This document shows, one piece after another, positions 18,112 to 64,000 of a stretch of DNA of 64,000 bases. Location of the stretch: assembly GCF_009834185.1 (NCBI RefSeq), contig NZ_CP047173.1, forward strand, positions 1,391,725 to 1,455,724. Reading direction: 5' to 3'. The stretch's first letter is position 1. Each line of letters begins with the position of its first letter. A program made the position numbers and the translations under genes. The stretch comes from Rathayibacter sp. VKM Ac-2760 (lineage in GTDB: Bacteria > Actinomycetota > Actinomycetes > Actinomycetales > Microbacteriaceae). The notes under the pieces are model-generated. The model saw nothing but the letters and a program-made list of their open reading frames with translations, ran no database searches and was not told the DNA's origin.

Positions 18112-18133
18112 CGACGCCCGGGCCTTGCCCCAA

Positions 18134-18196
18134 CCGCGAGATGCCACTTATGAGCGGCGACACCGGCGTGTCGCGCTCATAAGTGGCATCTCGCGG
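18134..18196 (+). repeat. family-1 palindromic element, copy 3
   Basis: CCGCGAGATGCCACTTATGAGCG ... CGCTCATAAGTGGCATCTCGCGG. It carries a compensatory G>A / C>T change relative to copy 2. Confidence 0.85.
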
Positions 18197-18243
18197 GAGG
18201 GGTCGGACGCGGGTGAGCGTCAGACGTCCTGGGCGTCAGCGGG

Positions 18244-19020: not shown

Positions 19021-20395
19021 TCAGCCGACGCGCGCGAGCGCGGCGGCGAGATGGGTGGTCGAGCGGCCCGCGTGGTACGGCACCGTCAGGACGCGGCCGC
19101 CCCACTCGGCGACCGTCGCGGTCTCGGGCAGCGATTCGGCGGAGTAGTCGCCGCCCTTGACCCAGACGTCCGGGCGGATGCGGCGCAGTGCCTCGTCCGG
19201 GGTGTCCTCGCCGAAGACGAGCACGGCGTCGACGCACTCGAGCGCGAGCAGCAGGTCGACCCGGTCGTCCTCGGGGATGATCGGCCGCGCCGGTCCCTTC
19301 AGGCGACGGACGGAGTCGTCCGAGTTGAGGCAGACGATCAGGCAGTCGCCGAGCGCCCGGGCGGCCGAGAGGGTGCGGGCGTGCCCGGCGTGCAGCAGGT
19401 CGAAGCAGCCGCCGGTCGCGACCACGGTGCCGCCGGCGCCGCGGACGGCCTCGGCGACGCGCAGCGCGTCCACCCCCGAGGCCCCGTGCAGGGCGGCGGT
19501 GTCGGCGGGCACGGCGAGGGAGGCGCGACCGCCCGCGAGCAGATAGGCACCGGCCGCGGCGACGGCCGCGCCGACCGCCTCGGACGCAGTGGCCCCGCCC
19601 GCGAGTGCGACGGCGGCGGAGGCGGCGAAGGTCGCCCGCCCCGCACGGGTCCGTCGGCGGCACGGGGGCGGCAGGATGCACGACCGGAACGCCGGCGCCG
19701 CGCGAGCGGACCAGCGCACCGCCGGAGCCCATCGTCACGGCGACCGCGCCGCAGCCCCAGCGCTCGAGCAGCGTCGTCGCGGCGGTCTCGGCGAGGGTGA
19801 CGCCGCGGCCACTCGCGCCGGAGAAGCCGGTGGCCTCGCCGAGGTTCGGCGTCGCGAGGGTCGTCCCGGCGACGGGCGCCGAGCCGCGCGGGTGCGGATC
19901 CCAGACCAGCGGCACCGAGAGCGCGTCGAGGGCGGCCCGCAGCGAGGCGTCCTCGGTCAGCCGGCGGCCGTAGTCCGCCACGACGACCGCGTCCACCTCG
20001 TCGAGCGCGGCGAGCATCTCCAGGGTCACGCTCGGCACCGGCGGTCGCTCGCAGCCGCGGTCGAAGCGGACGACGGCCTGGCCGGAGGCCGCGACCCGCG
20101 TCTTCACCGGCGTCGGAGCGCCGGACGGACCGGCGACCACCCGCACGCCGTCGAGCGCGACCAGCAGCTCGGCGGCATCCGGGTCCGCGGCGTCGGCGAG
20201 CGCCGTCACCAGCACGACGTCGTGGCCGTCGCGCGCGAGCATCCGCGCCACGAGCCCGGCGCCGCCGGCCCGGACCCCGCGGGTCGACACGTCGACCACG
20301 GGCACGGGCGCGTCGGGGCTCAGCCGCTCGGCCGGGCCGGAGAGGTCGACGTCGAGCATCACGTCGCCGACCACGGCGATCCGCAGGCGGCTCAC
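19021..20395 (-). pseudogene. hldE: second hldE paralogue with an apparent frameshift inside the GAGD motif
   Basis: The kinase frame (from GTG at 20395) reads ...DPCGAGD and then turns to nonsense. The adenylyltransferase frame resumes with TFAASAAVALAGG...GGCFDLLHAGH. The span is 1375 nt (3n+1) and the break is near 19628-19633. Confidence 0.65.
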
Positions 20396-26272: not shown

Positions 26273-27164
26273 CGGTCGCGACCCGCGCGCGGGCCGCCCT
26301 GGGCTGATGGCTGCGCGAGGGGGCGCCGAGGCGGTCGGCGAGCTGCGCGAGGATCCGGCGCTGCAGCCGCGAGACCTGCATCTGCGTGGTCCCGAGCGCG
26401 TCGGCGATCTGCTGCTGCGTCATCTCCTCGACGAAGCGCATCCGGAGCAGCTCGCGCTGGCCGGCCTCCAGCTCCGCGAGCGCCTCGGCCAGACCGTGCC
26501 GGCGGTCGATCGCGGCGAGGTCCGCGTCGTCTCCGCCGAGCGTCTCGCCCAGGCGGACGCCGGTCTCGCCGACCGACTCGTCGAGCGAGAGCGGGTGCCC
26601 CGCCGAGCGCGCGTCCGCGACCTCGGCCGGGTCGACGCCGAGCCGCCGCGCGATCTCGCGATCGGACGGATGACGGCCGAGCTCCTGCGCCAGCTCGTCG
26701 GCGACGACCGCCGAGCGCCGGTGCAGCTCCTGCACCCCGCGGGGCGGCCGGATCATCCAGCCCAGATCGCGGAGATGGCGCTTCAGCTCACCCGTGATCG
26801 TGGGCACCGCGAACGCGGCGAAGCTGTCGCCGCGCTCCGGGCTGAACCGCCGGGCCGCCTTCACGAGACCGACGTAGGCGACCTGCCGGAGATCCGCGCG
26901 ATCGCCGCCGCCGCGGGAGACCCGGTTCGCCATCGCCTCGGCCAGGCCGAGGTGGTCGAGCACGATGCGCTCGCGGATCCGCGCGCCCTCGGCGTCGTCG
27001 GCGCCGGCCGCCGCCTGGAACAGCGAGAGCGTGCGCGCGTCCTTCTCCTCGCGCGGCGATCCGGCCGCCGGGGGGAGCGCGGGCGGCACGGAGGCGGGCG
27101 GCACAGGGGCGGGCGGCACGGGGGCGGGGAGTGCAGTGGCGGTGGCGAGAACGACCGTGCTCAT
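26232..27164 (-). CDS. RNA polymerase sigma factor, SigB/SigF/SigG (group 3) type
   Basis: The ATG at 27164 follows GGAAGGGG. Region 2 (LRQVAYVGLVKAARRFSPERGDSFAAFAVPTITGELKRHLRD) and region 4 (RELLRMRFVEEMTQQQIADALGTTQMQVSRL) are present. The 3' end overlaps the convergent GT9 gene by 41 nt. Confidence 0.8.
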   Translation of the reverse strand: MSTVVLATATALPAPVPPAPVPPASVPPALPPAAGSPREEKDARTLSLFQAAAGADDAEGARIRERIVLDHLGLAEAMANRVSRGGGDRADLRQVAYVGLVKAARRFSPERGDSFAAFAVPTITGELKRHLRDLGWMIRPPRGVQELHRRSAVVADELAQELGRHPSDREIARRLGVDPAEVADARSAGHPLSLDESVGETGVRLGETLGGDDADLAAIDRRHGLAEALAELEAGQRELLRMRFVEEMTQQQIADALGTTQMQVSRLQRRILAQLADRLGAPSRSHQPRAARARVATVTPVRPAARLRTA

Positions 27165-27353
27165 CGGTACCCCTTCCGGGCATGCTGGCGCCCAGGTCCG
27201 GAGCGGCGGGTTGCGACGCGCTCGTCGTCGAGCGGCCCCGGGAGAAGCGGTGCCCACAGGCCACCACTGCTCCTCTCGTTCTAGAAGTCCGTTGACTCGG
27301 AGCACTGCTTCGCGCTAGGCACCCCGAGCGCACCCGCCTCCGGCACGTCGAAC

Positions 27354-28200
27354 CACCTCCGGCTCGCAGATCCGCGTCCGGCTCGCTGAATCTCCCGTTT
27401 CCCGCGAGCCGAGCCTGTTTCCGCGAGCCGAGCCTCGACCCGTGGCACCTCCGGCTCGCAGAATGACGTCCGGCTCGCCGAATCGCCTGATTCCCGCGAG
27501 CCGAACCGGTTTCCGCGAGCCGAACCTCGGCCCGCGTCACCTCCGGCTCGCAGATTCGCGTCCGGCTCGCTGAATCGTCTGAATCCGGCGAGCCGAACGG
27601 GTTTCCGCGAGCCGAACCTCGGTCCTCGTCACCTCCGGCTCGCAGATTCGCGTCCGGCTCGCTGAATCGCCCGTTTCCCGCGAGCCGAACGGATTTCCGC
27701 GAGCCGAGCCTCGACCCGTGGCACCTCCGGCTCGCAGAATGACGTCCGGCTCGCCGAATCGCCCGATTCCCGCGAGCCGGACCGGTTTCCGCGAGCCGAA
27801 TCTCGGTCCGAGTCACCTCCGGCTCGCAGATTCGCGTCCGGCTCGCTGAATCGCCCATTTCCCGCGAGCCGGACCGGTTTCCGCGAGCCGAACCGCGACC
27901 CGCGTCACCTCGGGCTCGCAGAATGACGTCCGGCTCGCTGAATCACCTGATTCCCGCGAGCCGAACGGGTTTCCGCGAGCCGAACCTCGGTCCGCGTCAC
28001 CTCCGGCTCGCAGATTGACGTCCGGCTCGCCGAATCGCCTGATTCCCGCGAGCCGGACCGGTTTCCACGAGCCGAGCCTCGGCCCGCGTCACCTCCGGCT
28101 CGCAGATTGACGTCCGGCTCGCCGAATCGCCCGTTTCCCGCGAGCCGAACCGGTTTCCGCGAGCCCGACCTCGGCCCGCGCCACCTCCGCCCCGCAGACC
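27354..28200. repeat. tandem array of nine exact-length 92-bp units plus a degenerate tenth
   Basis: Unit starts (CACCTCCGGCTCGCAGA) are at 27354, 27446, 27538, 27630, 27722, 27814, 27906, 27998, 28090 and 28182. Each unit holds 2x CCGGCTCGC and 2x GCGAGCCG (mutually inverted). Confidence 0.95.
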
Positions 28201-51215: not shown

Positions 51216-52594
51216 TCAGTCGGCCGCGAAGAAGACGTTCTTGGTCTCGGTGAAGCCGAGGGCCGCGTCCGGTCCGAGCTCGCGCCCGAGCCCGGACTGC
51301 TTGAAGCCGCCGAACGGCGTCGCGTAGCGGACCGACGAGTGCGAGTTGACCGAGAGGTTGCCGGCCTCGACCGCGCGGGACATCCGCAGTGCGCGGCCGA
51401 GATCGCGGGTCCAGATCGAGCCGGAGAGCCCGTAGTCGGTGTCGTTGGCGAGCCGGATCGCGTCCGCCTCGTCCTCGAACGGCAGCACGGAGACGACCGG
51501 GCCGAAGACCTCCTCGCGCCAGACGGCGTCGCCGGTAGCGGGCAGCAGGACGGTCGGCGGGAACCAGAAGCCCGGGCCGGACGGAGCCGACCCGCGGAAC
51601 GCGACCGGCGCTCCCTCCGGCACGAAGCCGGCCACCCGCGCGTGATGCTCGGCCGACACCAGCGGACCCATCTCCGTCGCCTCCTCGCGCGGGTCGCCGA
51701 CGACGACGCCCTGCACGGCCGGCTCGAGCAGCTCGAGGAAGCGGTCGAGGACGCGCCTCTCGACCAGGATCCGGCTGCGCGCGCAGCAGTCCTGGCCCGC
51801 GTTCTCGAAGACGCCGGAGGGCGCGGTGCTCGCGGCGCGCTCGAGGTCGGAGTCGGCGAAGACGATGTTCGCGCTCTTGCCGCCGAGCTCGAGCGTCACC
51901 CGCTTCACCTGGTCGGCGCAGCCCGCCATCACCCGCTTGCCGACGCGCGTCGATCCGGTGAAGACGACCTTGCGGACCAGCGGATGCGTCACGAAGCGCT
52001 CGCCGACCACGTCGCCGCGCCCGGGCAGCACCTGGAAGAGGCCCTCGGGCAGGCCGGACGCGAGGGCCAGCTCGGCCAGGCGGAGACTCGTCAGCGGCGT
52101 CCACTCCGCGGGCTTCAGCACGACGGCGTTGCCCGCGGCGAGCGCCGGCGCGAAGCCCCAGGAGGCGATCGTCATCGGGAAGTTCCACGGCGTGATGATG
52201 CCGACCACGCCGAGCGGCTCGTGGACGGTGACGTCGAGCCCGCCGGCGACCGGGATCTGCGCGCCGAGCAGGCGCTCGGGGGCGGAGGAGGAGTACTCCA
52301 GCACGTCGCGGACGTGACCCGCCTCCCAGCGCGACTGGGTGATCGGGTGGCCGGAGTTGCGGGTCTCGAGCTGCGCCAGCTCCTCGATCGCGCCGTCGAC
52401 GGCGGCGGCGAAGCGGCGGAGGGCGCGGGCCCGGTCGACGGGGGCGAGCGCCGCCCAGCCGCGCGTGCGCCGCGGCGGCGCGGCTCGATCGCGGCGTCGA
52501 CGGCGGCGAGGTCGGCGAGGGCGATCTCGTCGAAGGCGGCGCCGGTCGCGGGGTCGACCAGGGTTTGCACGGCAGCGGGGGAGGGCGGGGTCAT
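51216..52594 (-). pseudogene. aldehyde dehydrogenase with an apparent 1-nt frameshift near the N-terminus
   Basis: The N-terminal 37 aa (MTPPSPAAVQTLVDPATGAAFDEIALADLAAVDAAIE) are in one frame. The rest (GWAALAPVDRARALRRF ... VVLKPAEWTPLT ... ELGGKS ... FENAGQDCCA) is in another. The span is 1379 nt (3n+2) and the break lies within 52461-52483. Confidence 0.65.
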
Positions 52595-53403
52595 CGGGGT
52601 GCGTCCTTCGGGGTTCCGGAGCGGTCGTCGGCGTCGTGCGCGGCTCCCGCGCGGTGGGCGAGCGCCGCGGCGACGAGGCCGGTGAACAGTCGGGTGTCGG
52701 CGGTGTCCTCCTCCGGGTGCCACTGCACGCCGAGCGCGAAGCGGCGGCCCGGCAGCTCGAGCGCCTCGATGGTGCCGTCGGCGGTCCGGGCGGCGACCTC
52801 GAGGCCGTCGGCGACCCGGTCGACCGCCTGGTGGTGGTAGACCTGCGCGACGACGACGTCCTCGCCGAGCAGTCCGCGCAGGCGCGACTCCGGCTCGACG
52901 GCGACGTCGACGTGGGAGAACACGCCGCCGCCCGCCTGGTAGCGGCGGTCGCCGACGACGTCGGGCAGGTGCTGGTGCAGGGTGCCGCCGAGCGAGACGT
53001 TGAGCAGCTGCGCGCCGCGGCAGATGCCGAGGAACGGCAGATCGGCCTCGAGGGCGGCGGTCATCAGGTGGTCCTCCCAGGCGTCGCGCTCGGGGCGGGG
53101 CTCGTCCGTCTCCGGGTGCGGCTCCTGGCCGTAGCGGGCCGGGTCGATGTCCTTGCCGCCGCAGACGATCAGCCCGTCGAGCCGGGCGACGACCGCGCGG
53201 GCGGTCTCGGCCGAGGCCGGCTGGGGCGGCAGGAGCAGCGCCACGCCGCCGGCGCGGGTCACGGAGTCGAGGTAGTTCGCGGGCAGGAAGGACGCCTCGA
53301 CGTCCCACACGCCCGACACGGCGCGCTCGCGGTAGGTCGTCAGTCCGATGATCGGGCGCGGGGCGACGACGCCGCCGCCGGTCGACGCGTCAGAGCCGCT
53401 CAA
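52591..53403 (-). CDS. gamma-glutamyl-gamma-aminobutyrate hydrolase family (class-I glutamine amidotransferase, PuuD-like)
   Basis: 270 aa with the nucleophile motif GICRGAQLLNV and GVQWHPE. Confidence 0.85.
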   Translation of the reverse strand: MSGSDASTGGGVVAPRPIIGLTTYRERAVSGVWDVEASFLPANYLDSVTRAGGVALLLPPQPASAETARAVVARLDGLIVCGGKDIDPARYGQEPHPETDEPRPERDAWEDHLMTAALEADLPFLGICRGAQLLNVSLGGTLHQHLPDVVGDRRYQAGGGVFSHVDVAVEPESRLRGLLGEDVVVAQVYHHQAVDRVADGLEVAARTADGTIEALELPGRRFALGVQWHPEEDTADTRLFTGLVAAALAHRAGAAHDADDRSGTPKDAPR

Positions 53404-54823
53404 AGCCGCGCACCCTCTCCCAGTCGGTCACCGCCGCGTCGTAGGCGGCCAGCTCCACGCGGGCGTTGTTCACGTAGTGCTCCACGACCTCGTCGCCGAA
53501 GGCGGCCCTGGCGAGCGCGGACGACTCGAACAGGTCGGCCGCCTCGCGGAGGGTGGCCGGGACCCGCGGCGCCCCCGAGCCGTAGGCGTTGCCGGTGCAG
53601 GCGTCCTCGAGCTCGAGCTCGTTCTCTATGCCGTGCAGACCGGCGGCGACGAGCGCCGCGACGGCCAGGTACTGGTTGACGTCGCCGCCCGGCACCCGGT
53701 TCTCGACCCGCAGCCCGGCGCCGTGTCCGACGACGCGCAGGGCGCAGGTGCGGTTGTCGAGACCCCAGGCGACCGCGGTCGGCGCGAAGGAGCCGTCGAC
53801 GTAGCGCTTGTAGGAGTTGATGTTCGGGGCGAAGAACAGCGTGAGCTCGCGCATCGCGGCCAGCTGGCCGGCCAGGTAGTGCCGGAAGAGCGGCGACATC
53901 CCGTGCTCGCCCGCCGCGTCGGCGAAGACGGGGGTGCCGTCCGTACCGCGGAGGGAGAGGTGGATGTGGCAGGAGTTGCCCTCGCGCTCGTTGAACTTGG
54001 CCATGAAGGTCAGGCTCTTGCCGTGCTTGTCGGCGATCTCCTTGGCGCCCGACTTGTAGATCGAGTGGTTGTCGCAGGTGACGAGGGCGGCGTCGTAGCG
54101 GAAGCCGATCTCCTGCTGGCCGAGGTTGCACTCGCCCTTGATGCCCTCGCAGTACAGGCCGGCGCCCTCCATCGACACCCGGATGTCCCGCATCAGCGGC
54201 TCCATCCGGGTCGAGGCGAGCAGGGCGTAGTCGATGTTGTAGTCGCTGGCGGGGGTCAGCTCGCGGTAGCCCTTCCGGAAGGCGTCGCGGTAGGAGTCGT
54301 CGAAGACGATGAACTCGAGCTCGGTCGCGACGAACGCCTCGAGCCCCCGGTCGGCGAGCCGGTCGAGCTGCGCGCGGAGGATCTGCCGGGGCGCCTCGCC
54401 CACCGGAGCGTCGTCGAGCCAGGTCAGATCGGCCGTCACCAGCGCGGTCCCCGGCAGCCACGGCGCGAGGCGCAGCGTCGACAGGTCCGGGATCATCTTC
54501 ATGTCGCCGTAGCCGCGCTCCCAGCTGGAGAGGGCGTAGCCGTCGACGGTGTTCATCTCGACGTCGACCGCGAGCAGGTAGTTGCAGCACTCGGCGCCGT
54601 GCTCGGCCACGTCGTCCTGGAACAGCCGTGCGGAGATGCGCTTGCCGACGAGCCGGCCCTGCATGTCGGTGAAGGCGACGATGACGGTGTCGATCTCGCC
54701 GGCCTCGATCAGGGTGTCGAGCCGGTCGAGGGTGAGCATGCCGCGGGGGAGCGTGCGGGCGGCGCGCGTCGTGTCGGCGCGCGGCTGGGCGGCGCGCGGC
54801 TGGTCGGCGCTGTCGGGTGCCAT
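53390..54823 (-). CDS. glutamine-synthetase-family gamma-glutamyl ligase (PuuA/GlnA3-GlnA4-like)
   Basis: 477 aa with GS beta-grasp and catalytic domains (NSCHIHLSL, FAPNINSYKR). GGAGG lies 6 nt upstream of the ATG at 54823. Confidence 0.85.
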   Translation of the reverse strand: MAPDSADQPRAAQPRADTTRAARTLPRGMLTLDRLDTLIEAGEIDTVIVAFTDMQGRLVGKRISARLFQDDVAEHGAECCNYLLAVDVEMNTVDGYALSSWERGYGDMKMIPDLSTLRLAPWLPGTALVTADLTWLDDAPVGEAPRQILRAQLDRLADRGLEAFVATELEFIVFDDSYRDAFRKGYRELTPASDYNIDYALLASTRMEPLMRDIRVSMEGAGLYCEGIKGECNLGQQEIGFRYDAALVTCDNHSIYKSGAKEIADKHGKSLTFMAKFNEREGNSCHIHLSLRGTDGTPVFADAAGEHGMSPLFRHYLAGQLAAMRELTLFFAPNINSYKRYVDGSFAPTAVAWGLDNRTCALRVVGHGAGLRVENRVPGGDVNQYLAVAALVAAGLHGIENELELEDACTGNAYGSGAPRVPATLREAADLFESSALARAAFGDEVVEHYVNNARVELAAYDAAVTDWERVRGFERL

Positions 54824-54887
54824 GGCGTGCCTCCGGAGATCGCTCCGCCGGGCGGGACGGACGCCGCATGGTCGGATTCGGGACCAT

Positions 54888-55006
54888 TAGACCACAGCCC
54901 GTCTCGGTCGTGCTCCCGGTCGCCCGGTTGTCGCGCAGGGTCCATGGCGAGCCGTCGGCGCAGTGCCTCGATCGCGCCGTTCACACCCCTGTAACGCCAT
55001 TGGTCT
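54888..55006. promoter_or_regulatory. candidate GntR-type operator half-sites TAGACCAC (54888-54895) and TGGTCT (55001-55006)
   Basis: Mutually inverted TGGTCT/AGACCA half-sites, as in GntR-family operators of the TGGTCTAGACCA type. They lie in the divergent GS-like / permease promoter region. Confidence 0.2.
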
Positions 55007-55061
55007 TCCCCGCGTCCATTGAGGACCCTATGCTCTGAGCCACCCGAGCCGAGGAGACCCG

Positions 55062-56648
55062 ATGGCAGAGCAGACGAAGCAGACTCCGACGAGCAAGGGT
55101 GCGAGGCGCCCGGCGGCGTCCGGGCCCGACTCCGCGAACGTCACGAGCACCGCGGGGGTGACCTACCGCGAGGCCGAGGCCGGCTACTTCGAGAAGCGCA
55201 CCCTGCGCCGCTCCGCCGGCGTCTGGGGGCTCTGGGGTCTGGCCGTCGCCGCCGTCATCTCGGGTGACTTCTCGGGCTGGAACTTCGGGATCGAGTTCGC
55301 CGGCTTCGGCGGGATGCTGATCGCCTTCGCGGTCCTCGTGGTGATGTACTACGGCCTGATCTTCTCGATCGGCGAGATGTCGGCCGCGATGCCGCACACC
55401 GGCGGCGCCTACTCCTTCGCCCGCTCGGCGATGGGGCCGTGGGGCGGTCTGGTCACCGGACTGGCCGAGACCATCGAGTACGTGGCCACCACCGCCGTGG
55501 TCGTCTTCTTCTCGGCGCAGTACGCGAACGGGGTGACGAGCGAGCTGCTCGGCTTCGACCTCTCCGGCGCGATGTGGATCTGGTGGCTCGTCCTCTACAT
55601 CGTCTTCGTCGCGCTGAACTCCGCGGGCGCGGCGATCTCGTTCCGCTTCGCGATCGTCGTCTCGATCGTGTCCATCGCGATCCTGCTGGCCTTCTCCGTG
55701 ATGGCGCTGCTCTCGCCGGCGCTCGACTGGTCGAGCCTGTGGAACATCGCGCCGGACGCGGGCCAGTCCGAGTTCCTCCCGCACGGCGTCCTGCCGATCC
55801 TCTTCGCACTGCCGTTCGCCATGTGGTTCTTCCTCGGCATCGAGGAGCTGCCGCTCGCGGCCGAGGAGGCGCACGATCCGGTCCGCGACATCCCCCGCGC
55901 CGGCTTCTGGGCCCGCGGCACGCTGATCGTGACCGGACTGCTCGTCCTCTTCCTCAACACCGCGCTGATCGGCTCCGAGGACATGGGCGTCTCGACCGAG
56001 CCGCTGCTCGACGGCTTCCGCGCGATGGTCGGCGACGGGGCGGCGGCCGTGCTCGCGCTGTTCGCCCTGATCGGGCTGCTCGCCTCACTGCAGGGCATCA
56101 TGTTCGCCTACGGGCGCAACATGTACTCGCTCTCCCGGGCGGGCTACTACCCCCGCGTCTTCTCGCTCACCGGGAAGCGCCAGACGCCGTGGATCGCCCT
56201 GACCGTGGGCGCGGTCATCGGCTTCGTCGCCCTCGTCGTCGTCGACGTGCTCAGCCGGCTCGACCCGGACAACGCCGGCGCCGTCGCGGGAGCGATCGTG
56301 CTGAACATCGCGGTCTGGGGCGCGGTCGTCGCGTACTTCATGCAGATGGTCTCGTTCGTGCTGCTGCGCCGCCGGTTCCCGAGCGCGACCCGTCCGTACC
56401 GCAGCCCGTGGGGTGTGCCGGGTGCGGTGATCGCGGCGCTGATCAACGTGCTGATCTTCCTCGGCTTCCTCTTCAACGACGCGTTCCAGCCCGCGATCAT
56501 CGCCATCGCCGTGGTCTACGTGATCATCCTGATCGGCTTCGCGGTCTGGGGGCGGAAGCGCCTCGTGCTCTCGCCCGAGGAGCGCTACGCGCTGAGCGGC
56601 GGACTGCACGCGGCGCCGAGCATCCCGGAGCCGGATCGCGTCGACTGA
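55062..56648 (+). CDS. ethanolamine-permease-like APC transporter
   Basis: 528 aa. The N-terminal YFEKRTLRRSAGVWGLWGLAVAAVISGDFSGWNFG pattern is typical of ethanolamine permeases. Confidence 0.75.
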   Translation: MAEQTKQTPTSKGARRPAASGPDSANVTSTAGVTYREAEAGYFEKRTLRRSAGVWGLWGLAVAAVISGDFSGWNFGIEFAGFGGMLIAFAVLVVMYYGLIFSIGEMSAAMPHTGGAYSFARSAMGPWGGLVTGLAETIEYVATTAVVVFFSAQYANGVTSELLGFDLSGAMWIWWLVLYIVFVALNSAGAAISFRFAIVVSIVSIAILLAFSVMALLSPALDWSSLWNIAPDAGQSEFLPHGVLPILFALPFAMWFFLGIEELPLAAEEAHDPVRDIPRAGFWARGTLIVTGLLVLFLNTALIGSEDMGVSTEPLLDGFRAMVGDGAAAVLALFALIGLLASLQGIMFAYGRNMYSLSRAGYYPRVFSLTGKRQTPWIALTVGAVIGFVALVVVDVLSRLDPDNAGAVAGAIVLNIAVWGAVVAYFMQMVSFVLLRRRFPSATRPYRSPWGVPGAVIAALINVLIFLGFLFNDAFQPAIIAIAVVYVIILIGFAVWGRKRLVLSPEERYALSGGLHAAPSIPEPDRVD

Positions 56649-56664
56649 CGCGCGGCGTCCGGGG

Positions 56665-56802
56665 TCAGGAGGCGCCGCCGCGGCTGTCGTGGCCGGGGTC
56701 GAACGCGACGGGGGAGAGCCCGTCGCTCCGGATCGCGAGCGCGAGCGGGAGGGCGAGCGCGGTGAGCAGGACGGCGGTGAGGAGGGTGAGCAGGAGGAGC
56801 AT
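56665..56802 (-). CDS. possible 45-aa hydrophobic peptide
   Basis: MLLLLTLLTAVLLTALALPLALAIRSDG..., with almost every codon ending in G or C. There is no convincing RBS and it is below the track cutoff as a separate ORF. Confidence 0.3.
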   Translation of the reverse strand: MLLLLTLLTAVLLTALALPLALAIRSDGLSPVAFDPGHDSRGGAS

Positions 56803-56866
56803 GAGGGGTCCGATCTCGAGGTGATGCTCCGAGAGTGGACCCGTCCACTTGTCCGCGGGGCTCGAG

Positions 56867-56927
56867 GAGCAGTCCACTTCGGCCGGTCCGGTCCATCCCC
56901 GTCCGGCCGCGCCAAGGTGGACTGCTC
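56867..56927 (+). repeat. 61-nt hairpin-forming inverted repeat in the aspA upstream region
   Basis: GAGCAGTCCAC (56867-56877) pairs with GTGGACTGCTC (56917-56927), with an inner CGGCCGG/CCGGCCG pairing. Nearby is the 7-2-7 palindrome AGTGGAC-CC-GTCCACT (56834-56849). Confidence 0.5.
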
Positions 56928-57013
56928 GGCTGGAGCCCCGGCGTAGGCTGGCCCCGCAGTCCGCGGACCCCCTGCACCCTTCGGGGCCGCACGACGACAG
57001 CGATGGAGCTGAC

Positions 57014-58519
57014 GTGACCTCCGCCTCGACCACCCTCCCCGAGAGCATCGACCCGCCGAGCCGGCCGGAAGGACCCCCTGTGAACGGCGCCACCCGCACC
57101 GAGACCGACTCGCTCGGCCCGCTCGACATCCCGGCCGACGCCTACTGGGGCATCCACACCGCCCGGGCCCTGGACAACTTCCCGATCTCGAAGCGCCCGA
57201 TCTCGATCTACCCGGACCTCGTCCGCGCGCTGGCGACCGTCAAGCTCGCGGGGGCCCGGGCGAACACGGAGATCGGCAGCCTCGCCCCGGCGAAGGCCGA
57301 GCTGATCGAGCAGGCCTGCCGCCGGATCATCGACGGCGAGTTCCACGACCAGTTCGTGGTCGGTGTCATCCAGGGCGGCGCCGGCACCTCGACGAACATG
57401 AACGCGAACGAGGTCGTCGCCAACGTCGCCCTCGAGATCGCCGGCCGGCCCAAGGGTGACTACGCCTTCCTGCACCCCCTCGACGACGTGAACCGCAGCC
57501 AGTCCACCAACGACGTCTACCCGACGTCGATCAAGATCGCGATGACCTGGTCGCTGCGCCGGCTGCTCGACGAGCTCGCCCTCCTCCAGGCCTCGTTCTC
57601 GCGGAAGGCCGTCGAGTTCGGCAGCGTCCTCAAGGTCGGCCGGACGCAGCTGCAGGACGCGGTGCCGATGACCCTCGGCCAGGAGTTCCACGGCTTCGCC
57701 ACCACGCTCGGCGAGGACCACGCGCGCCTCTCCGAGACGATCTGGCTGCTCGCCGAGGTCAACATCGGCGCCACCGCGATCGGCACCGGCATCACCGCCG
57801 ATCCGCGCTACGGCGCCGCCGCCGTCCGCCACCTCAACGAGCTGACCGACCTCGACCTCGAGATGGCGCAGGACCTGGTCGAGGCGACCAGCGACGCCGG
57901 CGTCTTCATGTCGTTCTCGAGCGCGCTGAAGCGCTCGGCGATCAAGCTCTCCAAGATCTGCAACGACCTCCGCCTGCTCTCCTCGGGCCCGCAGGCCGGC
58001 TTCGGCGAGCTCAACCTGCCGCCGCGCCAGGCCGGCTCGAGCATCATGCCCGGCAAGGTGAACCCGGTGATCCCCGAGGTCGTCAACCAGGTCGCCTACT
58101 CGGTGGCCGGCGCCGACGTCACCGTGACCATGGCGGCCGAGGCCGGCCAGCTGCAGCTCAACGCCTTCGAGCCGGTGATCGCGCACTCGCTGCTGCAGTC
58201 GATCACCTGGATGACCCAGGCCTGTCTCACGCTCCGGATCAACTGCATCGACGGCGTCACCGCCAACGTCGACCGGCTGGAGGCGATGGTCGCCTCCTCG
58301 GTCGGCGTGGTCACCGCGCTGACCCCGAGCATCGGCTACACCGCGTCGGCGGCCCTCGCGAAGGCGGCGCTCGCCACCGGGCGCAACGTCGCCGACCTGG
58401 TGGTCGAGGCCGGTCTGATGTCGCGCGAGGAGGTGCTGCGGCTCATCTCACCCGCGCGCCTCTCCGGCATCGAGGCGATGACCGCGTCCCTCCCGATCAT
58501 CGAGCCGACGCCGGAGTAG
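57014..58519 (+). CDS. aspA: aspartate ammonia-lyase
   Basis: The GTG at 57014 follows GGAG. Fumarase/aspartase signature GSSIMPGKVNPVIPE and N-terminal TETDSLGPLDIPADAYWGIHTARALDNF. Confidence 0.85.
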   Translation: MTSASTTLPESIDPPSRPEGPPVNGATRTETDSLGPLDIPADAYWGIHTARALDNFPISKRPISIYPDLVRALATVKLAGARANTEIGSLAPAKAELIEQACRRIIDGEFHDQFVVGVIQGGAGTSTNMNANEVVANVALEIAGRPKGDYAFLHPLDDVNRSQSTNDVYPTSIKIAMTWSLRRLLDELALLQASFSRKAVEFGSVLKVGRTQLQDAVPMTLGQEFHGFATTLGEDHARLSETIWLLAEVNIGATAIGTGITADPRYGAAAVRHLNELTDLDLEMAQDLVEATSDAGVFMSFSSALKRSAIKLSKICNDLRLLSSGPQAGFGELNLPPRQAGSSIMPGKVNPVIPEVVNQVAYSVAGADVTVTMAAEAGQLQLNAFEPVIAHSLLQSITWMTQACLTLRINCIDGVTANVDRLEAMVASSVGVVTALTPSIGYTASAALAKAALATGRNVADLVVEAGLMSREEVLRLISPARLSGIEAMTASLPIIEPTPE

Positions 58520-58530
58520 TCCGGCCCACT

Positions 58531-58593
58531 CCGCGAGATGCCACTTGCGCGCGCCTTCCTCGGCGTGTCGCGCTCACAAGTGGCATCTCGCGG
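58531..58593 (+). repeat. family-1 palindromic element, copy 4
   Basis: CCGCGAGATGCCACTTG ... CAAGTGGCATCTCGCGG. It lies 12 nt after the aspA stop, and the alkA-like stop codon (58574-58576) is inside it. Confidence 0.8.
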
Positions 58594-60038
58594 AGAGGTG
58601 CAGGGCGGCGTAGCTGCGCCAGGGGGACCAGGGGCGGGAGGAGTCGGCGAGGGCTCGAGGGGTCGAGGGGAGACCGAGGGCCGCGGCGCCGCGGCGGACG
58701 GGACCGTCGTCGGCGAGCAGCACGTCCGGGTCGCCGGTGATCCGTGCCGCGACGGAGCCGGCGGCCACCGGATCGATGCCGTCCACGGCGAGCAGGCGTT
58801 CCAGCAACTCCTCGCGACTCGCGCCGGCGTCGAGCCGCAGCTCGCCGGCGGCGAGGAGCGCGGCGACGCGGAGGACGGTCCCGACTCCGCGAGCGCCTGC
58901 CAGCGGCTCCGCGCCGCGGTCGGCGATCGCCGCGGGCGAGGAAGGCGCGGGTGATCGCCCCACTCGCGAGCGCGGCGGGCAGCGGCTCGCCGAGGGCCGC
59001 GACCAGCCGGGTCAGCGCCGCGCGGGCCGCGACCGGAGCACCGCGCCCGATCAGCGTGCGGAGCAGGGTCTCCGCCGGGTCGACGGAGCCCGGCAGGCGG
59101 ATCCCGGGCCTCGCGGCGACGAGCGGAGCGAGCACCGGATCCGCCGCGAGCGCCTCGTCGATCGCCGCGGAGTCGGCGTCGAGGTCGAGCAGACGGCGCA
59201 CCCGCGCGACCAGCGGGCCGACGTCGGCGACGGAGGCGAGCGTCGCAGTGCAGCGCACCGCGTCGCCGTCGAGCTCGAGCCGGGCGATCGCCGGGCCGCC
59301 GGGCAGCGCGAGCGAGCGGGCGTACCGGTCCGGCCCTGCCTCCTCGACCCCCGGCAGGGCGGTGCCCCCGAGCGCGGTGAGCACGCCCGCGTCGAACGGC
59401 GCCCGCACCGGCAGGCGCAGCTCGAGCGTCGTCGCGCCCGCCTGCACGGCCGCCGCCGAGCGGTCGCCGCGGGTCGAGGCGCGCACGGCGCTGGGGCTGC
59501 GCTCGTACACCTCCTGGATCGTCGCGTTGAACTGCCGGATGCTCGCGAAGCCCGCCGCGAACGCCACCTCCGACACCGGCAGCTCGGTGCCGGTGAGCAG
59601 CAGCCGGGCCGTCTGCGCGCGCTGGGCCCTGGCCAGGGCGAGCGGAGGCGCGCCGAGCTCGTCGCGCAGGATCCGGCCGAGCTGGCGGGTGCCGTAGCCG
59701 AGTCGTGCGGCGAGCCCGGCGACACCCTCGCGGTCGACCACCCCGTCGCCGATCAGCCGCATCGCCCGGGCGGCGGTGTCGTCGCGGAGGTTCCACTCCG
59801 GCGAGCCGGGCACGGCGTCCGGCAGGCAGCGCTTGCACGCGCGCAGCCCCGCCTCGTGCGCGGCGGCCGCGGTCGGATAGAAGCGGACGTTGCCGGGCCG
59901 CGGAGTCGCGGCGGGGCAGCTCGGGCGGCAGTAGATGCCGGTCGAGTGCACGCCGGTGAGGAAGCGGCCGTCGAAGCGGGAGTCGCGCGAGGCGACCGCG
60001 CGGTAGCGCTGCTCGAAGAGCGGGTCGACGTCCGTCAT
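58574..60038 (-). pseudogene. Ada/AlkA-type protein (Ada Zn-binding + AraC HTH + DNA-3-methyladenine glycosylase II) with an apparent frameshift
   Basis: Frame 1 reads MTDVDPLFEQRYRAV...YCRPSCPA...CKRCLP...HTH...GAITRAF. Frame 2 reads SPAAIADRGAEPLAGARGVG...WRSYAALHL (HhH-GPD part). The span is 1465 nt (3n+1) and the break is near 58940. Confidence 0.65.
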
Positions 60039-60142
60039 GCTCCGAGCCTCGCACGGCACGCGGCCGCTCGATCGCGGGAATCGGACACGGCCGCTGTCAA
60101 CCGCCGGTCCGGCGGCCCGCCGGTGCCCTACTCTCGGTCCCC

Positions 60143-61258
60143 ATGAGCGTCTACCCGCCGCCCCCGCCCGCCCGGCCCTCGATCGTCCCGACCGTGCTGG
60201 GCGCGATCGGCGTCGCGCTGCTCGGCGTGCTGCTGCTCCTCGTGCTCGCCTACGTCGTGTCGGGTCTCGGCGCGACCGCCGCGGGGATCTGCGCGGTCGT
60301 CGCCCTGGTGCCGCTGCTGATCGTGCTCGCGGGCGTCCGCTGGGTCGACCGCTGGGAGCCGGAGGCGCCGCTCGGGCTGTGGTTCGCGTTCCTCTGGGGC
60401 GCGGCGGGCTCCGTGGCGATCTCGCTCCTGGTCGACCTCGGCGTGCAGATCGCGGTCTACGCGACCGGGGCGCAGCCGAGCGAGTCGGACTTCGTCGGCG
60501 CGGTGATCCAGGCGCCGATCGTCGAGGAGTCGGCCAAGGGGCTCGGCGTGCTGCTGATCCTGCTGATCTGGCGCCGGAGCTTCGACGGACCGGTCGACGG
60601 CATCGTCTACGCGGCGGTCGTCGCCTCCGGATTCGCCTTCGTCGAGAACATCCTCTACTTCGGCAGCGCGCTGGTGGAGGGCGGGCTCGGCTCGCTGGCC
60701 GTCACCTTCTTCCTCCGCGGCGTGCTCTCGCCGTTCGCGCACGTGCTCTTCACCGCCTGCTTCGGCGCCGCACTCGGTGTCGCGATGAACCGCCCGCCCG
60801 CCGCGCGCCTGCCGATCGCGCTGCTCGGCCTGGCGCTCGCCGCTTTCCTGCACGCGCTCTGGAACGGCTCGTCGTTCCTCGTCGCCGACTGGTTCGGCTT
60901 CTACGGCGTGGTGCAGGTGCCGCTGTTCGTCGTCGCGGTGGTGATCGTCTCGCTGCTGCGCCGGCAGGAGCGGCGGGTCACCCTGGAGCGGCTCGGCGAC
61001 TACGCCGCGGCCGGCTGGCTCTCGCCGACCGAGGTGCGGATGATCGGCACGGCCGAGGGGCGCCGCACCGCCGCGCGCTGGGCCCGGGTGGCCGGCGGCG
61101 ACCGGCCGCGGGCGATGCGCGGCTTCATCCGCTCGGCGACGCGGCTCGCCCACGTGGGTCAGCAGCAGCTGGCCGGGCGCGGTGGGCGCGGGGCGGTGCT
61201 CGACGAGCGGGTGCTGCTGGACGAGCTGGTGGCGCGCCGCGCCGCGCTGACCGGCTGA
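60143..61258 (+). CDS. PrsW-family intramembrane glutamic/metallo-protease
   Basis: 371 aa, polytopic, with motifs APIVEESAKG, FAFVENILYF and SPFAHVLFT. Confidence 0.8.
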   Translation: MSVYPPPPPARPSIVPTVLGAIGVALLGVLLLLVLAYVVSGLGATAAGICAVVALVPLLIVLAGVRWVDRWEPEAPLGLWFAFLWGAAGSVAISLLVDLGVQIAVYATGAQPSESDFVGAVIQAPIVEESAKGLGVLLILLIWRRSFDGPVDGIVYAAVVASGFAFVENILYFGSALVEGGLGSLAVTFFLRGVLSPFAHVLFTACFGAALGVAMNRPPAARLPIALLGLALAAFLHALWNGSSFLVADWFGFYGVVQVPLFVVAVVIVSLLRRQERRVTLERLGDYAAAGWLSPTEVRMIGTAEGRRTAARWARVAGGDRPRAMRGFIRSATRLAHVGQQQLAGRGGRGAVLDERVLLDELVARRAALTG

Positions 61259-61284
61259 CCACGGGGAACGAAGGGAGTCGCCGA

Positions 61285-62103
61285 GTGCGCAGCATCGAGG
61301 TCGGGACCGCCGACGGGGGAGTCCTCCGCGTCCACGACAGCGCCGGCCCGGGCCGGCCGCTGCTCTGGCAGCACGGCTCCCCGCAGACCGGGGCGCTGCT
61401 GGCGCCCGTGCTGCGGGCCGCCCGCGAGCGCGGACTCCGGCTGCTCTCCTACGGCCGGCCGGGCTACGGCGGCTCGACCGCCCGGCCGGGTCGCGACGTG
61501 GCCTCGGCGGCGGAGGACGTCCGCGCCGTCCTCGACGCACTCGGCCTCGACCGGATCCTGACGGCCGGCGCCTCGGGCGGTGGACCGCACGCCCTGGCCT
61601 GCGGCGCCCTGCTCGCCGACCGGGTCGACGGCGTGCTGGCGCTCGCCTCACCCGCGCCGGACGACGGCGGCCCCGAGTGGCTCGCCGGCATGGCGGCGCC
61701 GGGCGGGCTCGCCTCCGCGCGGGAGGGCCGCGATTCGCGCGCCCGCTTCGCCGAGACGGACGAGTTCGATCCCGCGTCGTTCGTCCCGGCGGACGACGAG
61801 GCGCTCGAGGGCGAGTGGGCGGCGCTCGGCGAGGACGTCGCGCGCTCCGAGGAGTGGGGCGACGGCGGCCTGATCGACGACGACGTCGCCTTCGCGCGGC
61901 CCTGGGGCGTCGACCTCGCGGCGGTGCGCTGCCCGGTCGTCCTGGTGCAGGGCGGCCTCGACCGGGTGATCCCGCCGCACCACGCCCGCAGGCTGCGCGC
62001 GCTCCTCCCGAGCGCCGAGCTGCACGAGCACCCGGGCGACGGCCACGTCTCGGTGCTGCGGCGGTTGCCCGAGGCGCTCGACCGGCTGCTCGCAGTGAGC
62101 TGA
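61285..62103 (+). CDS. alpha/beta hydrolase
   Basis: The GTG at 61285 follows GAAGGGA. It has a GASGGG nucleophile elbow and C-terminal GDGH. Confidence 0.75.
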   Translation: MRSIEVGTADGGVLRVHDSAGPGRPLLWQHGSPQTGALLAPVLRAARERGLRLLSYGRPGYGGSTARPGRDVASAAEDVRAVLDALGLDRILTAGASGGGPHALACGALLADRVDGVLALASPAPDDGGPEWLAGMAAPGGLASAREGRDSRARFAETDEFDPASFVPADDEALEGEWAALGEDVARSEEWGDGGLIDDDVAFARPWGVDLAAVRCPVVLVQGGLDRVIPPHHARRLRALLPSAELHEHPGDGHVSVLRRLPEALDRLLAVS

Positions 62104-62125
62104 GGCGACGGCGGCCGCCGCCTGG

Positions 62126-63394
62126 TCAGCTCGGCTGCACCGCGACCTCGGGGTCGGTCGCCGTCCGCCTCGCCCGCAGTCGTTCCGCGGCGCGGCGGCG
62201 GAGATCCGCGAACGCGACGACGCCGGAGGCGAGGCACAGCGCCGCCACGGCCGGTGCGACCAGGTCGATCGCCGCCTCCAGCCCGAGCGCCGTCGCCACG
62301 GCTCCCGCGGCGACCGCGGTGATGGCCTGCGCGAGGTAGCTCAGAAGGTAGACGGCCGAGATCATCGAGCCGCGGTGCTCGGGCGGCGCCGCCTGCCCGA
62401 CCAGTGCGAGCCCGCCCGAGAAGCTGAGCGAGTAGCCGACGCCGCCGACGATCATGAAGGCGACGAACAGCACGAGCGAGCCGCTCGCCGCCGTCCACTC
62501 CATCAGCGCGAGACCGGCGATCGCGACCACGGCGCCGGCGATGATCGCGAGATGCGCGTGCACCCGCTGGATCGCCAGGGCGGTGAGACCGATCACGACC
62601 GACGACAGCGCGAGCACCGCGCCGATCACGAGCAGATCGGTCGTGCCGGTGAGCTCCCGCGCCATCTGCGCGCCGAGGGAGAGCACGAGGGCGCCGACCG
62701 CGTAGGCGACCGAGACGGCGAGCGTCGCTCCGGCGTACGCGCTCCGCAGACCCGCGGGCACGGTGGGCAGGCGCGGGCGCCAGCGGGCACCCGGGACCGG
62801 GCGGTCGTCGCGACCGAGGGCCAGCAGGACGAGCGTGACCGCGCCGACCAGCCCCAGGACCCAGTAGCTCAGCTGCAGGGGCAGCGGCGCGTACTGCGCC
62901 AGGGCTCCCGAGAGCAGGAGCGACAGGGTGAGCCCCGCGGCGGTCGACACGGTCGTCAGCGACGAGGGGAGCCGCGGGTTGGCCGACACGTTGTTGTCGA
63001 CGAGGGAGGCGCTCGCCGCGCTGAGCGCGAGCGCCGTCCCGACGCCCTGCATCGCCCGGCCGAGATAGAGCAGCGCGACGCCGTCCGCGAGCGAGAAGAC
63101 GAGCGCCGAGAGCGCGATCAGGGCGATGCCCAGCAGCATCGTCCGCCGCCGCCCGATGACGTCGGAGAGCCCGCCGACGAGGAGCAGCGCGAGCAGCAGC
63201 GCGACGGGATAGGCGCCGAAGACCGAGGTGATGACGACGGGGGAGAGTCCCCACTCCGCCGCGTAGCTGGGGTAAAGCACGGAGGGCGCGCCGCTGGACC
63301 AGAGGCACAGGGCCAGCACGAGCGTCGAGACCCAGAAGGCGCCTCGCCGCCCGAAGCGCGCGGGAGGGCGGAGGACGGTCCGGGGAGTCGGCAT
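62126..63394 (-). CDS. MFS transporter
   Basis: About 12 TM segments with the MFS motif GGLSDVIGRRR. The ATG at 63394 is preferred to the track start 63454. Confidence 0.8.
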   Translation of the reverse strand: MPTPRTVLRPPARFGRRGAFWVSTLVLALCLWSSGAPSVLYPSYAAEWGLSPVVITSVFGAYPVALLLALLLVGGLSDVIGRRRTMLLGIALIALSALVFSLADGVALLYLGRAMQGVGTALALSAASASLVDNNVSANPRLPSSLTTVSTAAGLTLSLLLSGALAQYAPLPLQLSYWVLGLVGAVTLVLLALGRDDRPVPGARWRPRLPTVPAGLRSAYAGATLAVSVAYAVGALVLSLGAQMARELTGTTDLLVIGAVLALSSVVIGLTALAIQRVHAHLAIIAGAVVAIAGLALMEWTAASGSLVLFVAFMIVGGVGYSLSFSGGLALVGQAAPPEHRGSMISAVYLLSYLAQAITAVAAGAVATALGLEAAIDLVAPAVAALCLASGVVAFADLRRRAAERLRARRTATDPEVAVQPS

Positions 63395-63454
63395 GGCGGC
63401 CACGCTAGTGCCCTGGCTTGGAAAAACCAAGCGAGCCTGCGATAGTCTCGACAC

Positions 63455-63952
63455 GTGCCCGCCACCGCCCGCCTCCCCGTCGACGTCGACAGCGACCGGG
63501 CCGAGCGCTGCTCGGTCGCCCGATCCCTCGAGCTCCTCGGCGAGCGCTGGAGCCTGCTGATCATCCGGGAGGCGCTGCGCGGAGCGAGCACCTACTCCGA
63601 GTTCCGCGAGCGGCTCGGTGTGCCGAGCGACGTGCTCTCGGCGCGGCTGCGCACCCTCACCGAGGCCGGGATCTTCGCCAAGGTCCCCTACCGGCCGGAA
63701 GGAGCGCGCGAGCGCTCCCGCTACGAGCTCACCGAGCAGGGCCGCGCGCTGAAGCTCGTGCTCGTCGCGCTCGCGCAGTGGGGCGATGAGAACCGTCCGC
63801 TGCCGCAGGGTGCGAGCTCGATCCCGGCCGACGCCGACTCGGGCGAGCGGCTCGAGCTCGCCTTCGTCGACCGGGAGGGCCGCCGGTCGCCTCTCGAGCG
63901 CGTCCGGATCGTGCCCGGCCCCGCCGCCCGGTCGACCTGGAAGAGTCTCTGA
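63455..63952 (+). CDS. HxlR-family (winged-helix) transcriptional regulator
   Basis: 165 aa with CSVARSLELLGERWSLLIIREAL...YSEFRERLGVPSDVLSARLRTLTEAGI. Divergent from the MFS gene. Confidence 0.85.
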   Translation: MPATARLPVDVDSDRAERCSVARSLELLGERWSLLIIREALRGASTYSEFRERLGVPSDVLSARLRTLTEAGIFAKVPYRPEGARERSRYELTEQGRALKLVLVALAQWGDENRPLPQGASSIPADADSGERLELAFVDREGRRSPLERVRIVPGPAARSTWKSL

Positions 63953-64000
63953 GCCGAGCGTCCCGGCCGAGGGCGGTCCTCAGGCCGCGCGCAGCACCCG

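Follow-up and report, generated by a model that had tools for sequence, protein, structure and literature searches.

A frameshift of probable assembly origin and a repeat-made 3' end in the AdaA-AraC-AlkA fusion gene of Rathayibacter sp. VKM Ac-2760

Proteins of the AdaA-AlkA fusion family are made up of a Zn domain that senses methylphosphotriesters, an AraC HTH and a 3-methyladenine glycosylase. Small palindromic repeats of the REP type can overlap or remodel gene ends. The AdaA-AlkA fusion type has been described (PMC6300522), and residual assembly indels that create false pseudogenes are a general problem (see, for example, PMC12007338 and PMC8011154).

We analyzed a 64 kb window of the genome of Rathayibacter sp. 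VKM Ac-2760 (CP047173), in which the minus-strand gene at 60038..58574, with its ATG at 60038, is the VKM Ac-2760 orthologue of the actinobacterial AdaA-AraC-AlkA fusion of the Rv1317c type. An earlier note on this DNA had recognized such a fusion, and Pfam domains and orthologue alignment confirm it: the protein matches Ada_Zn_binding (PF02805, E 7e-29, 100 bits), HTH_18 (PF12833, E 2e-18, 67 bits) and AlkA_N (PF06029, E 6e-28, 98 bits), and its Zn-ligand motif IYC37RPSC41...C68KRC71 (Cys37/41/68/71, four ligands that include the methyl-acceptor Cys) aligns with FCRPSC...CKRC of E. coli Ada. It shares with the AdaA-AlkA fusions of Actinobacteria and Deinococcus, including M. tuberculosis Rv1317c, the order of Ada Zn domain with four Cys, AraC-type HTH, AlkA N-domain and HhH-GPD domain. 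Homologues number more than 8000, with 55-67% identity to Leifsonia and Agromyces proteins and 75-87% within Rathayibacter. Unlike the other fusions, the deposited gene is not continuous in one frame; it is split by a 2-nt gap at 58939/58940 into the following parts:

58940..60038, minus strand: alkA frame-A part, with the Ada Zn-binding domain, AraC-type HTH, AlkA N-domain and first HhH-GPD helices (Pfam, orthologue and E. coli Ada alignments)
58574..58939, minus strand: alkA frame-B part, with the remaining HhH-GPD domain, SPAAIADRG...WRSYAALHLSARCHL, including the TGA (orthologue and E. coli AlkA (1diz) alignments)
58497..58939, minus strand: out-of-frame Arg-rich tail of the GenBank 513-aa protein, from frame-A read-through (translation)

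Frame A runs to ...GAITRAF and continues as Arg-rich nonsense to a stop at 58497, crossing a hairpin and overlapping the 3' end of the convergent aspA gene by 23 nt. Frame B is open over 58963..58574 and reads SPAAIADRG...WRSYAALHLSARCHL to its stop. The NCBI protein P0009 (VKM Ac-2760) is 100% identical to the frame-A part, and it matches the repaired fusion protein at 100% identity with only 75% coverage. The 129-aa frame-B ORF had no exact match among recorded proteins.

The position of the break is precise. The gene spans 1465 nt (3n+1), and a DNA alignment with the closest relative, VKM Ac-2857, and 11 more orthologues places a clean 2-nt gap between 58940 and 58939. At this junction the window reads TTCC followed directly by TCGCC, compared to TTCCCNTC.CC in the other orthologues, all 12 of which encode F-P-S in a single frame as TTC CCN TCN. 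The earlier note's placement of a break near 58940, with a 3n+1 span and an expected RAF-PSPAA junction, was thus borne out as a 2-nt loss. The 2-nt-shorter form at the alkA site reads TTCCTCGCC; the form with two more bases at 58939/58940 would read TTCCCNTCG.

Programmed ribosomal frameshifting (+1 or -2) at TTC-CTC-GCC would yield full-length AdaA-AlkA, and the only observation in its favor is that both frames meet exactly at the conserved junction. We rejected this explanation as effectively refuted by the ordinary codons of the single-frame orthologues (12 of 12 aligned). The 2-nt difference occurs in this assembly alone, and no conserved slippery heptamer or downstream stimulatory structure is seen at the junction. 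All orthologues compared are single-frame with one exception, the Rathayibacter draft of VKM Ac-2630, which lies in three frames and breaks at another place. It is also very improbable that the culture was heterogeneous for a phase-variable C run of which the assembly caught the shorter allele, whether minor or major. Most relatives do have CCCC where the deletion falls, but the homopolymer is not conserved among them (CCCG, CCCT and CCCC all occur). A 4-nt homopolymer is far shorter than known phase-varying tracts.

To judge whether the missing bases are missing from the organism, we turned to how the sequence was made. CP047173 is a Unicycler hybrid assembly of ONT rapid-kit reads (Guppy 2.3.5) and Nextera Illumina reads, and we compared it with Logan Illumina-only contigs from the same strain's reads (run SRR10912304). 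These contigs match the window exactly over 19.9 kb save in two places, which are the two companion frameshifts that the earlier note had reported in hldE2 and ALDH and that are indeed present in the window sequence near 19650 and 52480:

19629..19673, minus strand: hldE2 frameshift site, with GC lost and an A/G substitution relative to the Illumina-only contig; assembly error (Logan contig comparison)
52465..52483, minus strand: ALDH frameshift site, with two surplus G relative to the Illumina-only contig; assembly error (Logan contig comparison)

At hldE2, GC is missing from the window at 19629/19630 and A stands for G at 19673; the nearest end of an Illumina contig is 90-135 nt away. At ALDH the window has two surplus G, near 52465 and 52483, and here the distance to the contig end is 13-31 nt. 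The Illumina sequence gives single-frame, full-length products for both genes (Aldedh profile 10-461/461 for ALDH; PfkB 3-294/302 plus CTP_transf_like for hldE2). Both checkable frameshifts are assembly errors. Like known false pseudogenes from hybrid and long-read assemblies, each gene is broken in CP047173 and intact in the Illumina-only assembly, and the sites share with that class 1-2-nt indels and a substitution near Illumina contig ends in extreme GC. Where the earlier note had weighed gene decay against systematic assembly indels, the second option therefore holds for hldE2 and ALDH, and a "third frameshift in 64 kb" is no evidence of genome decay. A GC3 frame scan gave further candidate junctions at 4300, 8740, 11650, 15350 and 50335, all of which are ordinary gene boundaries.

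Because the hldE2 and ALDH frameshifts are proven assembly errors, we consider the alkA frameshift most probably an assembly artefact that is absent from the organism, with a probability of roughly 0.7. The gap would be a leftover long-read consensus error in a GC-rich stretch thinly covered by the Nextera library, and the real alkA gene would be one frame of 488 codons. We infer that the site belongs with the residual-indel false pseudogenes. Local GC at all three sites is at or above the 95th percentile of 100-nt windows (80-82%, about the 95th percentile, around the alkA junction), and the hldE2 error likewise includes a 2-nt deletion. The alkA deletion is one of three within 130 nt (-3 at about 59024, -2 at 58940, -3 at about 58896), and both proven error sites are also clusters of changes. 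The column of the 58896 deletion is filled in 118 of 118 homologues. Illumina-sequenced relatives (P0014-P0017) also have in-frame deletions at these two loops, so that the codon deletions of the window may be genuine. No hidden compensating +/-1 errors were found around either codon deletion, and the intervening translation is homologous in frame.

The Illumina contig on the PrsW side of the gene ends at 59424 with a Nextera adapter attached, which indicates a coverage hole to its left, and the contig on the aspA side ends at 58585, inside the hairpin. These ends lie 484 and 355 nt, respectively, from the alkA site, farther than at hldE2 and ALDH, so that an artefact requires one more break in coverage that was not observed. 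A 5.8-billion-protein database (queries included residues 202-488 and 319-488) yielded no Illumina-derived protein from 58585-59424, which fits a fragmented stretch but carries little weight, one search having missed the known close hits P0009 and P0003.

The main alternative is a real 2-nt deletion, by recent slippage in the short C run (TTCCCCTCG to TTCCTCG), that truncated an already decaying glycosylase domain. Its product would be the 513-aa protein with Ada sensor, HTH and AlkA_N intact and a junk tail, amounting to domain-level pseudogenization. Illumina coverage of the assembly was 378x, Unicycler polishing was applied, and the flanking 4.6 kb and 6.1 kb match Illumina-only contigs perfectly, all in favor of a genuine deletion; against it stand the signs of an Illumina coverage hole adjoining the gene and the two proven errors of the same size class in similar GC-rich context.

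The state of the glycosylase domain also bears on this alternative. The repaired protein is homologous to residues 8-271 of E. coli AlkA (1diz, E 2e-16) and keeps the D238 equivalent, but the equivalents of E. coli G216, W218, Y222 and W272 are replaced. In the clade of VKM Ac-2760, Ac-2857, Ac-2856 and PhB152, the HhH hairpin GIGPWTAGY of AdaA-AlkA fusions has become GIDPVAGS, the GQQVS motif is degenerate too, and the conserved Trp of the C-terminal HLW is gone. The Pfam HhH-GPD score is 13.4 bits, far under the 26.2 cut-off. We dropped this low score as proof of decay on its own, since most intact homologues also have no precomputed PF00730 match, and gauged decay instead by conserved-column counts and dN/dS. 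Of 82 conserved columns in the glycosylase domain, 24 are changed in the clade; typical Rathayibacter have 7-12 such changes, and 102 other homologues average 1.8. Omega for the domain is 0.3-0.5 in the clade versus 0.15-0.25. Judged by these sequence measures, the clade's glycosylase domain is demonstrably under relaxed constraint. The clade has lost conserved pocket and HhH residues, other Rathayibacter lineages have also lost conserved residues of this domain, and the Ada sensor half is strongly conserved. The protein probably still serves as an alkylation-responsive regulator, and its glycosylase is probably weakened or altered.

Relaxed constraint counts against an artefact, since a genuine disabling indel would be tolerated. 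In the window gene and its nearest relatives, conserved residues have been lost specifically from the glycosylase domain, omega is raised in the HhH-GPD part only, and the HhH-GPD score is very low; all of this fits a real deletion. On the other hand, the other three clade members are single-frame across the junction despite equal degeneracy, and with omega at about 0.4 rather than 1 on the window lineage, inactivation would have to be very recent. Taken together, we regard a real deletion as possible but unlikely, and an assembly artefact remains our preferred reading of the frameshift.

The 3' end of the gene has a separate history. The earlier note had proposed that a repeat supplies the last codons and stop of alkA, and the following features are involved:

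57014..58519, plus strand: convergent aspA, an aspartate ammonia-lyase/fumarase-type lyase of 501 aa (exact product on a Logan contig; Pfam Lyase_1 and FumaraseC_C)
2000..2074, no strand assigned: hairpin repeat copy 1, directly 3' of the stop of a plus-strand gene (1997-1999)
3997..4063, no strand assigned: hairpin repeat copy 2, between a plus-strand gene (end 3943) and a convergent DUF2795 gene (stop 4069)
18117..18213, no strand assigned: hairpin repeat copy 3, between convergent genes ending at 18111 (plus) and 18244 (minus)
58526..58598, no strand assigned: hairpin repeat copy 4, between convergent aspA and alkA, with core arms 58529-58547 and 58577-58595, the right arm encoding alkA ARCHL and stop

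The ARCHL codons and the TGA (58574-58576) fall in the right arm of copy 4 (58577-58595 plus flank), where ...GCG AGA TGC CAC TTG TGA provides alkA's last residues and stop. The repeat lies in identical register at the alkA end of three related, independently sequenced species (VKM Ac-2857, L081 and L083), and on this basis the repeat-made end is real and inherited, but ordinary. The proposal thus stood up in both directions: each of the three orthologues ending in ARCHL has the repeat in that register, and none of the seven repeat-free species examined has this end; their alkA genes end in ...RAG, ...RGR or ...AGR and overlap aspA by 20-26 nt. The further suggestion that the element is shared with aspA stands insofar as the hairpin lies downstream of both genes; the aspA stop codon itself lies 6 nt before the hairpin, outside the repeat.

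The comparison shows that a REP-like repeat of about 67 nt arrived at the alkA 3' end in the ancestor of the clade. Before its arrival alkA and convergent aspA overlapped by 20-26 nt; the repeat pushed the two genes apart and replaced the alkA tail, including the conserved Trp equivalent to E. coli W272. The repeat-derived tail sets the gene apart from the AdaA-AlkA fusions of Actinobacteria and Deinococcus.

Copy 4 is an inverted repeat with arms 58526-58554 and 58570-58598 (90% complementary) and a folding energy of about -60 kcal/mol (z about -8); across copies the range is -59 to -63 kcal/mol (z -7.5 to -11). The arm sequence occurs eight times in the window, in four hairpins, versus 0.02 expected by chance, and six further copies lie at the orthologous locus of the same three relatives. 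Being short, multi-copy and imperfectly palindromic, and folding into a very stable hairpin, it resembles REP elements and also the Correia elements of Neisseria, mycobacterial MIRUs and Rickettsia RPEs. It is REP-like, too, in its position (each of the four window copies has one or more adjacent stop codons at a distance of 0-6 nt, and three are flanked by convergent genes), in its variable copy number at one locus (one here, two in tandem in relatives) and in its restriction to a narrow clade. Unlike REP-type families, it has no Rfam family and its loop is asymmetric, since just one side has a conserved CGGCGTGTCGCG. From distribution alone we infer that the repeat may be mobile. A test for intrinsic terminators found the hairpin but no T run in the 3' flanks of either strand (GGAGAGGTGCAGG, GGAGTGGGCCGG). 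Terminators of Actinobacteria can also be U-less and "I-shaped", a form that the repeat may take.

For the genome, these results mean that, of three "pseudogenes" in 64 kb of a "complete" GenBank genome, at least two result from assembly errors, at sites where the Nextera library failed on extreme-GC DNA and the long-read consensus filled in. Frameshift counts in CP047173, and probably also in sister genomes built alike, would overstate gene decay, and GenBank already holds a 513-aa chimeric protein (P0009) from the alkA locus.

For the family, several independently sequenced genomes show that a clade-specific REP-like hairpin can capture a gene's last codons and stop and resolve a convergent overlap. 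Loss of AlkA pocket residues alongside a tightly conserved Ada regulator part likewise appears in several Rathayibacter lineages and in independently sequenced genomes. A bolder and rather doubtful idea is that one Rathayibacter lineage after another is losing the glycosylase half and keeping the sensor/regulator half; the hairpin would have been the clade's first lesion, cutting off the pocket Trp and uncoupling the aspA overlap, and the VKM Ac-2760 frameshift would be a genuine and very recent next step. If this order of events were true, the locus would represent domain-level pseudogenization by a small palindromic repeat, caught in the act.

The alkA gene, an AdaA-AraC-AlkA fusion on the minus strand, opens at an ATG at 60038, and the product of this frame (frame A) matches the Pfam families Ada_Zn_binding (100 bits), HTH_18 (67 bits) and AlkA_N (98 bits). 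Frame A is sensible as far as ...ALASGAITRAF and beyond it becomes an arginine-rich string running to a stop at 58497; the glycosylase remainder lies in a second frame (frame B, 58963..58574), which translates as SPAAIADRGAEPLAG...WSPWRSYAALHLSARCHL followed by a stop. The 513-aa protein deposited at NCBI for Rathayibacter sp. VKM Ac-2760 (P0009) is 100% identical to the frame-A product. Every other Rathayibacter orthologue retrieved at the protein level has a single frame, of 482-514 aa, and the junction TR.FPSPAAIAE. DNA alignment to VKM Ac-2857, the closest relative (87% aa identity), and eleven other orthologues places a clean 2-nt gap between 58940 and 58939, where the window reads TTCC--TCGCC and the other aligned orthologues read TTCCCNTC.CC. 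The window gene is also short of one codon at ~59024 and one at ~58896, the latter in a column filled in 118/118 homologues (114 Pro, 4 Ser), so that within 130 nt there are three deletions found in this assembly alone or nearly so. The earlier note had described the frame break, the frame-B glycosylase part and the repeat-encoded ARCHL and TGA correctly in every detail. Separately, the alkA orthologue in the VKM Ac-2630 draft (NZ_MUKN01000016.1; L011:5990-7450) is spread over three frames, with one break inside the Ada Cys motif, following residue 37, and another following residue 391.

The VKM Ac-2760 genome was assembled with Unicycler 0.4.8 from ONT rapid-kit data (41,508 reads, N50 4.3 kb, Guppy 2.3.5 basecalls) and Nextera DNA Flex Illumina data at 378x coverage (PMC7256256). 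GC content is 72% in the genome and 74% in the window. Via neighbouring genes we reached four Illumina-only Logan contigs assembled from a single run of the same strain, SRR10912304, and compared them with the window.

Companion frameshifted genes and Illumina-only contigs compared with the window
51216-52592, minus strand: ALDH gene; discrepancy at 52465-52483
~19021-20395, minus strand: hldE2; discrepancy at 19629-19673
59424-64000: contig _70; no differences; Nextera adapter at its left end
52452-58585: contig _448; window has one extra G at ~52465 and one at ~52483, within the contig's last 31 nt
18167-19494: contig _1274; no differences
19539-27447: contig _290; GC missing from the window at 19629/19630; at 19673 window A, contig G

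Over the 19.9 kb compared, all differences are error clusters of the deposited assembly, and they fall exactly at the frameshift sites of the ALDH gene and hldE2. With the Illumina sequence (two G removed), the ALDH gene encodes AVDAAIERAAAAQRGWAALAPVDRARAL in one frame of 458 aa, matching positions 10-461 of the 461-position Aldedh profile; hldE2 likewise becomes a 458-aa single-frame PfkB and cytidylyltransferase protein. Both frameshifts, which the earlier note had attributed either to gene decay or to assembly indels, are present in the deposited sequence as described, and are errors of the assembly; they give no evidence of decay. (A paralogue of hldE2, hldE1, lies at 4326-5852.) Both error clusters lie no more than 135 nt from an Illumina contig end, at a GC content of 82-87% in 100-nt windows (95th to 99.9th percentile), the pattern expected when short-read coverage fails and the long-read consensus bridges the hole.

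Residual long-read errors that create false pseudogenes are a known problem. Around alkA, the Illumina-only contigs cover 52452-58585 and 59424-64000, on either side of the frameshift. At the 59424 end of contig _70 (L085:1-19), the Nextera mosaic-end adapter AGATGTGTATAAGAGACAG is joined to genomic DNA; since such a tip is normally clipped if covered, Illumina coverage to its left must have been very low, which points to a gap in coverage within alkA, immediately left of 59424. The site has 82% GC per 100-nt window, with an 88% peak ~60 nt away. We consider the 2-nt frameshift of alkA probably an assembly artefact, at odds of roughly 70%, because both tested frameshifts in the window are artefacts, one of them a deletion of the same size, because the GC context is that of the proven error sites, and because here too unique deletions are clustered. 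Short-read coverage would have failed in this GC-rich stretch, and a bridging long-read consensus would have introduced the 2-nt error.

The 3' end of alkA is a separate matter. The ARCHL codons and the TGA (58574-58576) sit in the right arm of an inverted repeat at 58526-58598, whose 29-nt arms are 90% complementary and which folds at ~-60 kcal/mol (z ~-8) on either strand. The window contains eight matches to its arm sequence, arranged as four hairpins, against 0.02 expected by chance.

Hairpin copies in the window, by arm matches
~2004-2070
~3997-4063
~18132-18198
~58529-58595, at the alkA 3' end

The three closest relatives, VKM Ac-2857, PhB152 and VKM Ac-2856, have this hairpin at the end of alkA in an identical register, and a second tandem copy ahead of the convergent gene aspA. 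PhB152 and VKM Ac-2856 alkA end in ARCHL as in the window. In VKM Ac-2857 (L001:7443-7551) the in-hairpin stop is mutated from TGA to AGT (TTGTGA to TTGAGT) and the gene continues through the whole hairpin for 30 additional codons, which shows that the tail supplied by the repeat is free of constraint. Seven further Rathayibacter species lack the repeat; their alkA genes end in RAG, RGR or AGR, and the overlap with the aspA 3' end is 20 or 26 nt. Among the clade members with the repeat, 54-195 nt separate alkA from aspA. These differences bear out the proposal that the element replaced the ancestral tail, and none of the seven repeat-free orthologues shares the window's C-terminal residues. 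The replaced tail normally starts HLW. At least 90% of 102 non-Rathayibacter homologues keep this Trp, which aligns with W272 of E. coli AlkA, the residue that follows ...LLHI271 and lines the substrate pocket. The repeat-supplied end is real and inherited, but ordinary.

Each of the four window hairpins has a stop codon 0-6 nt away on at least one side, and three are located between convergent genes. The anatomy is that of a REP-like extragenic palindrome, with no T tract 3' of the hairpin and no match in Rfam, and the element may stabilise mRNA 3' ends or act as a bidirectional terminator that lacks a U tract. Small palindromic repeats of this kind, placed on stop codons or reshaping the ends of genes, are known (REP/BIME, Correia, MIRU and RPE); the present family appears to be an undescribed member confined to one clade. 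Copies in the window and in the three relatives share a single chromosomal orientation, whatever that of the flanking genes (too few to judge significance), and a conserved CGGCGTGTCGCG half-loop on one constant side. Logan contigs consistently break within hairpins of this family.

The window holds other repeats. A second, unrelated palindromic family (core CACAACATCAGCTGAGA) occurs at 7238-7305 and 16834-16934. An apparently non-coding 92-nt tandem repeat (27354-28198; 9.2 copies, 87% matches) has inverted CGGCTCGC/GCGAGCCG motifs in each unit; unique spacers are absent, so the array is not CRISPR-like. Contig _290 stops within it, at 27447.

The AdaA-AlkA fusion is a well-known protein type (Rv1317c is one example; PMC6300522), and the window gene is an ordinary member save for its degenerate glycosylase domain. 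We counted changes per domain at columns at least 90% conserved in the 102 non-Rathayibacter homologues.

Changed conserved columns per domain
Window gene: Ada 4/62, HTH 7/73, AlkA_N 6/55, HhH-GPD 24/82
PhB152: HhH-GPD 20/82
VKM Ac-2856: HhH-GPD 26/82
Typical Rathayibacter: HhH-GPD 7-12/82; Ada, HTH and AlkA_N as in the window
102 homologues: HhH-GPD mean 1.8, maximum 15

Compared with E. coli AlkA, the window protein keeps the equivalent of catalytic D238 but has those of G216 (HhH hairpin), W218, Y222 and W272 replaced, and GQQVS has become GRGAP. Pairwise NG86 omega for HhH-GPD is 0.30-0.50 within the clade versus 0.15-0.25 among typical species; for Ada plus HTH it is 0.03-0.10 in all comparisons. 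Judged from the sequences of independent genomes, this clade has a truly degenerate glycosylase half. A true disabling indel there would therefore be tolerated, which keeps a real 2-nt deletion in VKM Ac-2760 a credible, if less probable, reading. However, omega remains well under 1, and the three other clade members have a single frame across the junction, so any real inactivation would be very recent, and we continue to favour an assembly artefact.

Similar HhH-GPD degeneracy is seen in the independent lineages of R. tritici, R. rathayi, AY1H2, Leaf248 and R. rubneri (P0008, P0014-P0017), with 23-30/82 conserved columns changed, the HLW Trp lost, in-frame deletions of 3-8 codons at the same loops as in the window, and the Ada/HTH half fully conserved. 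The domain-specific AlkA decay in Rathayibacter is real, though a modest finding.
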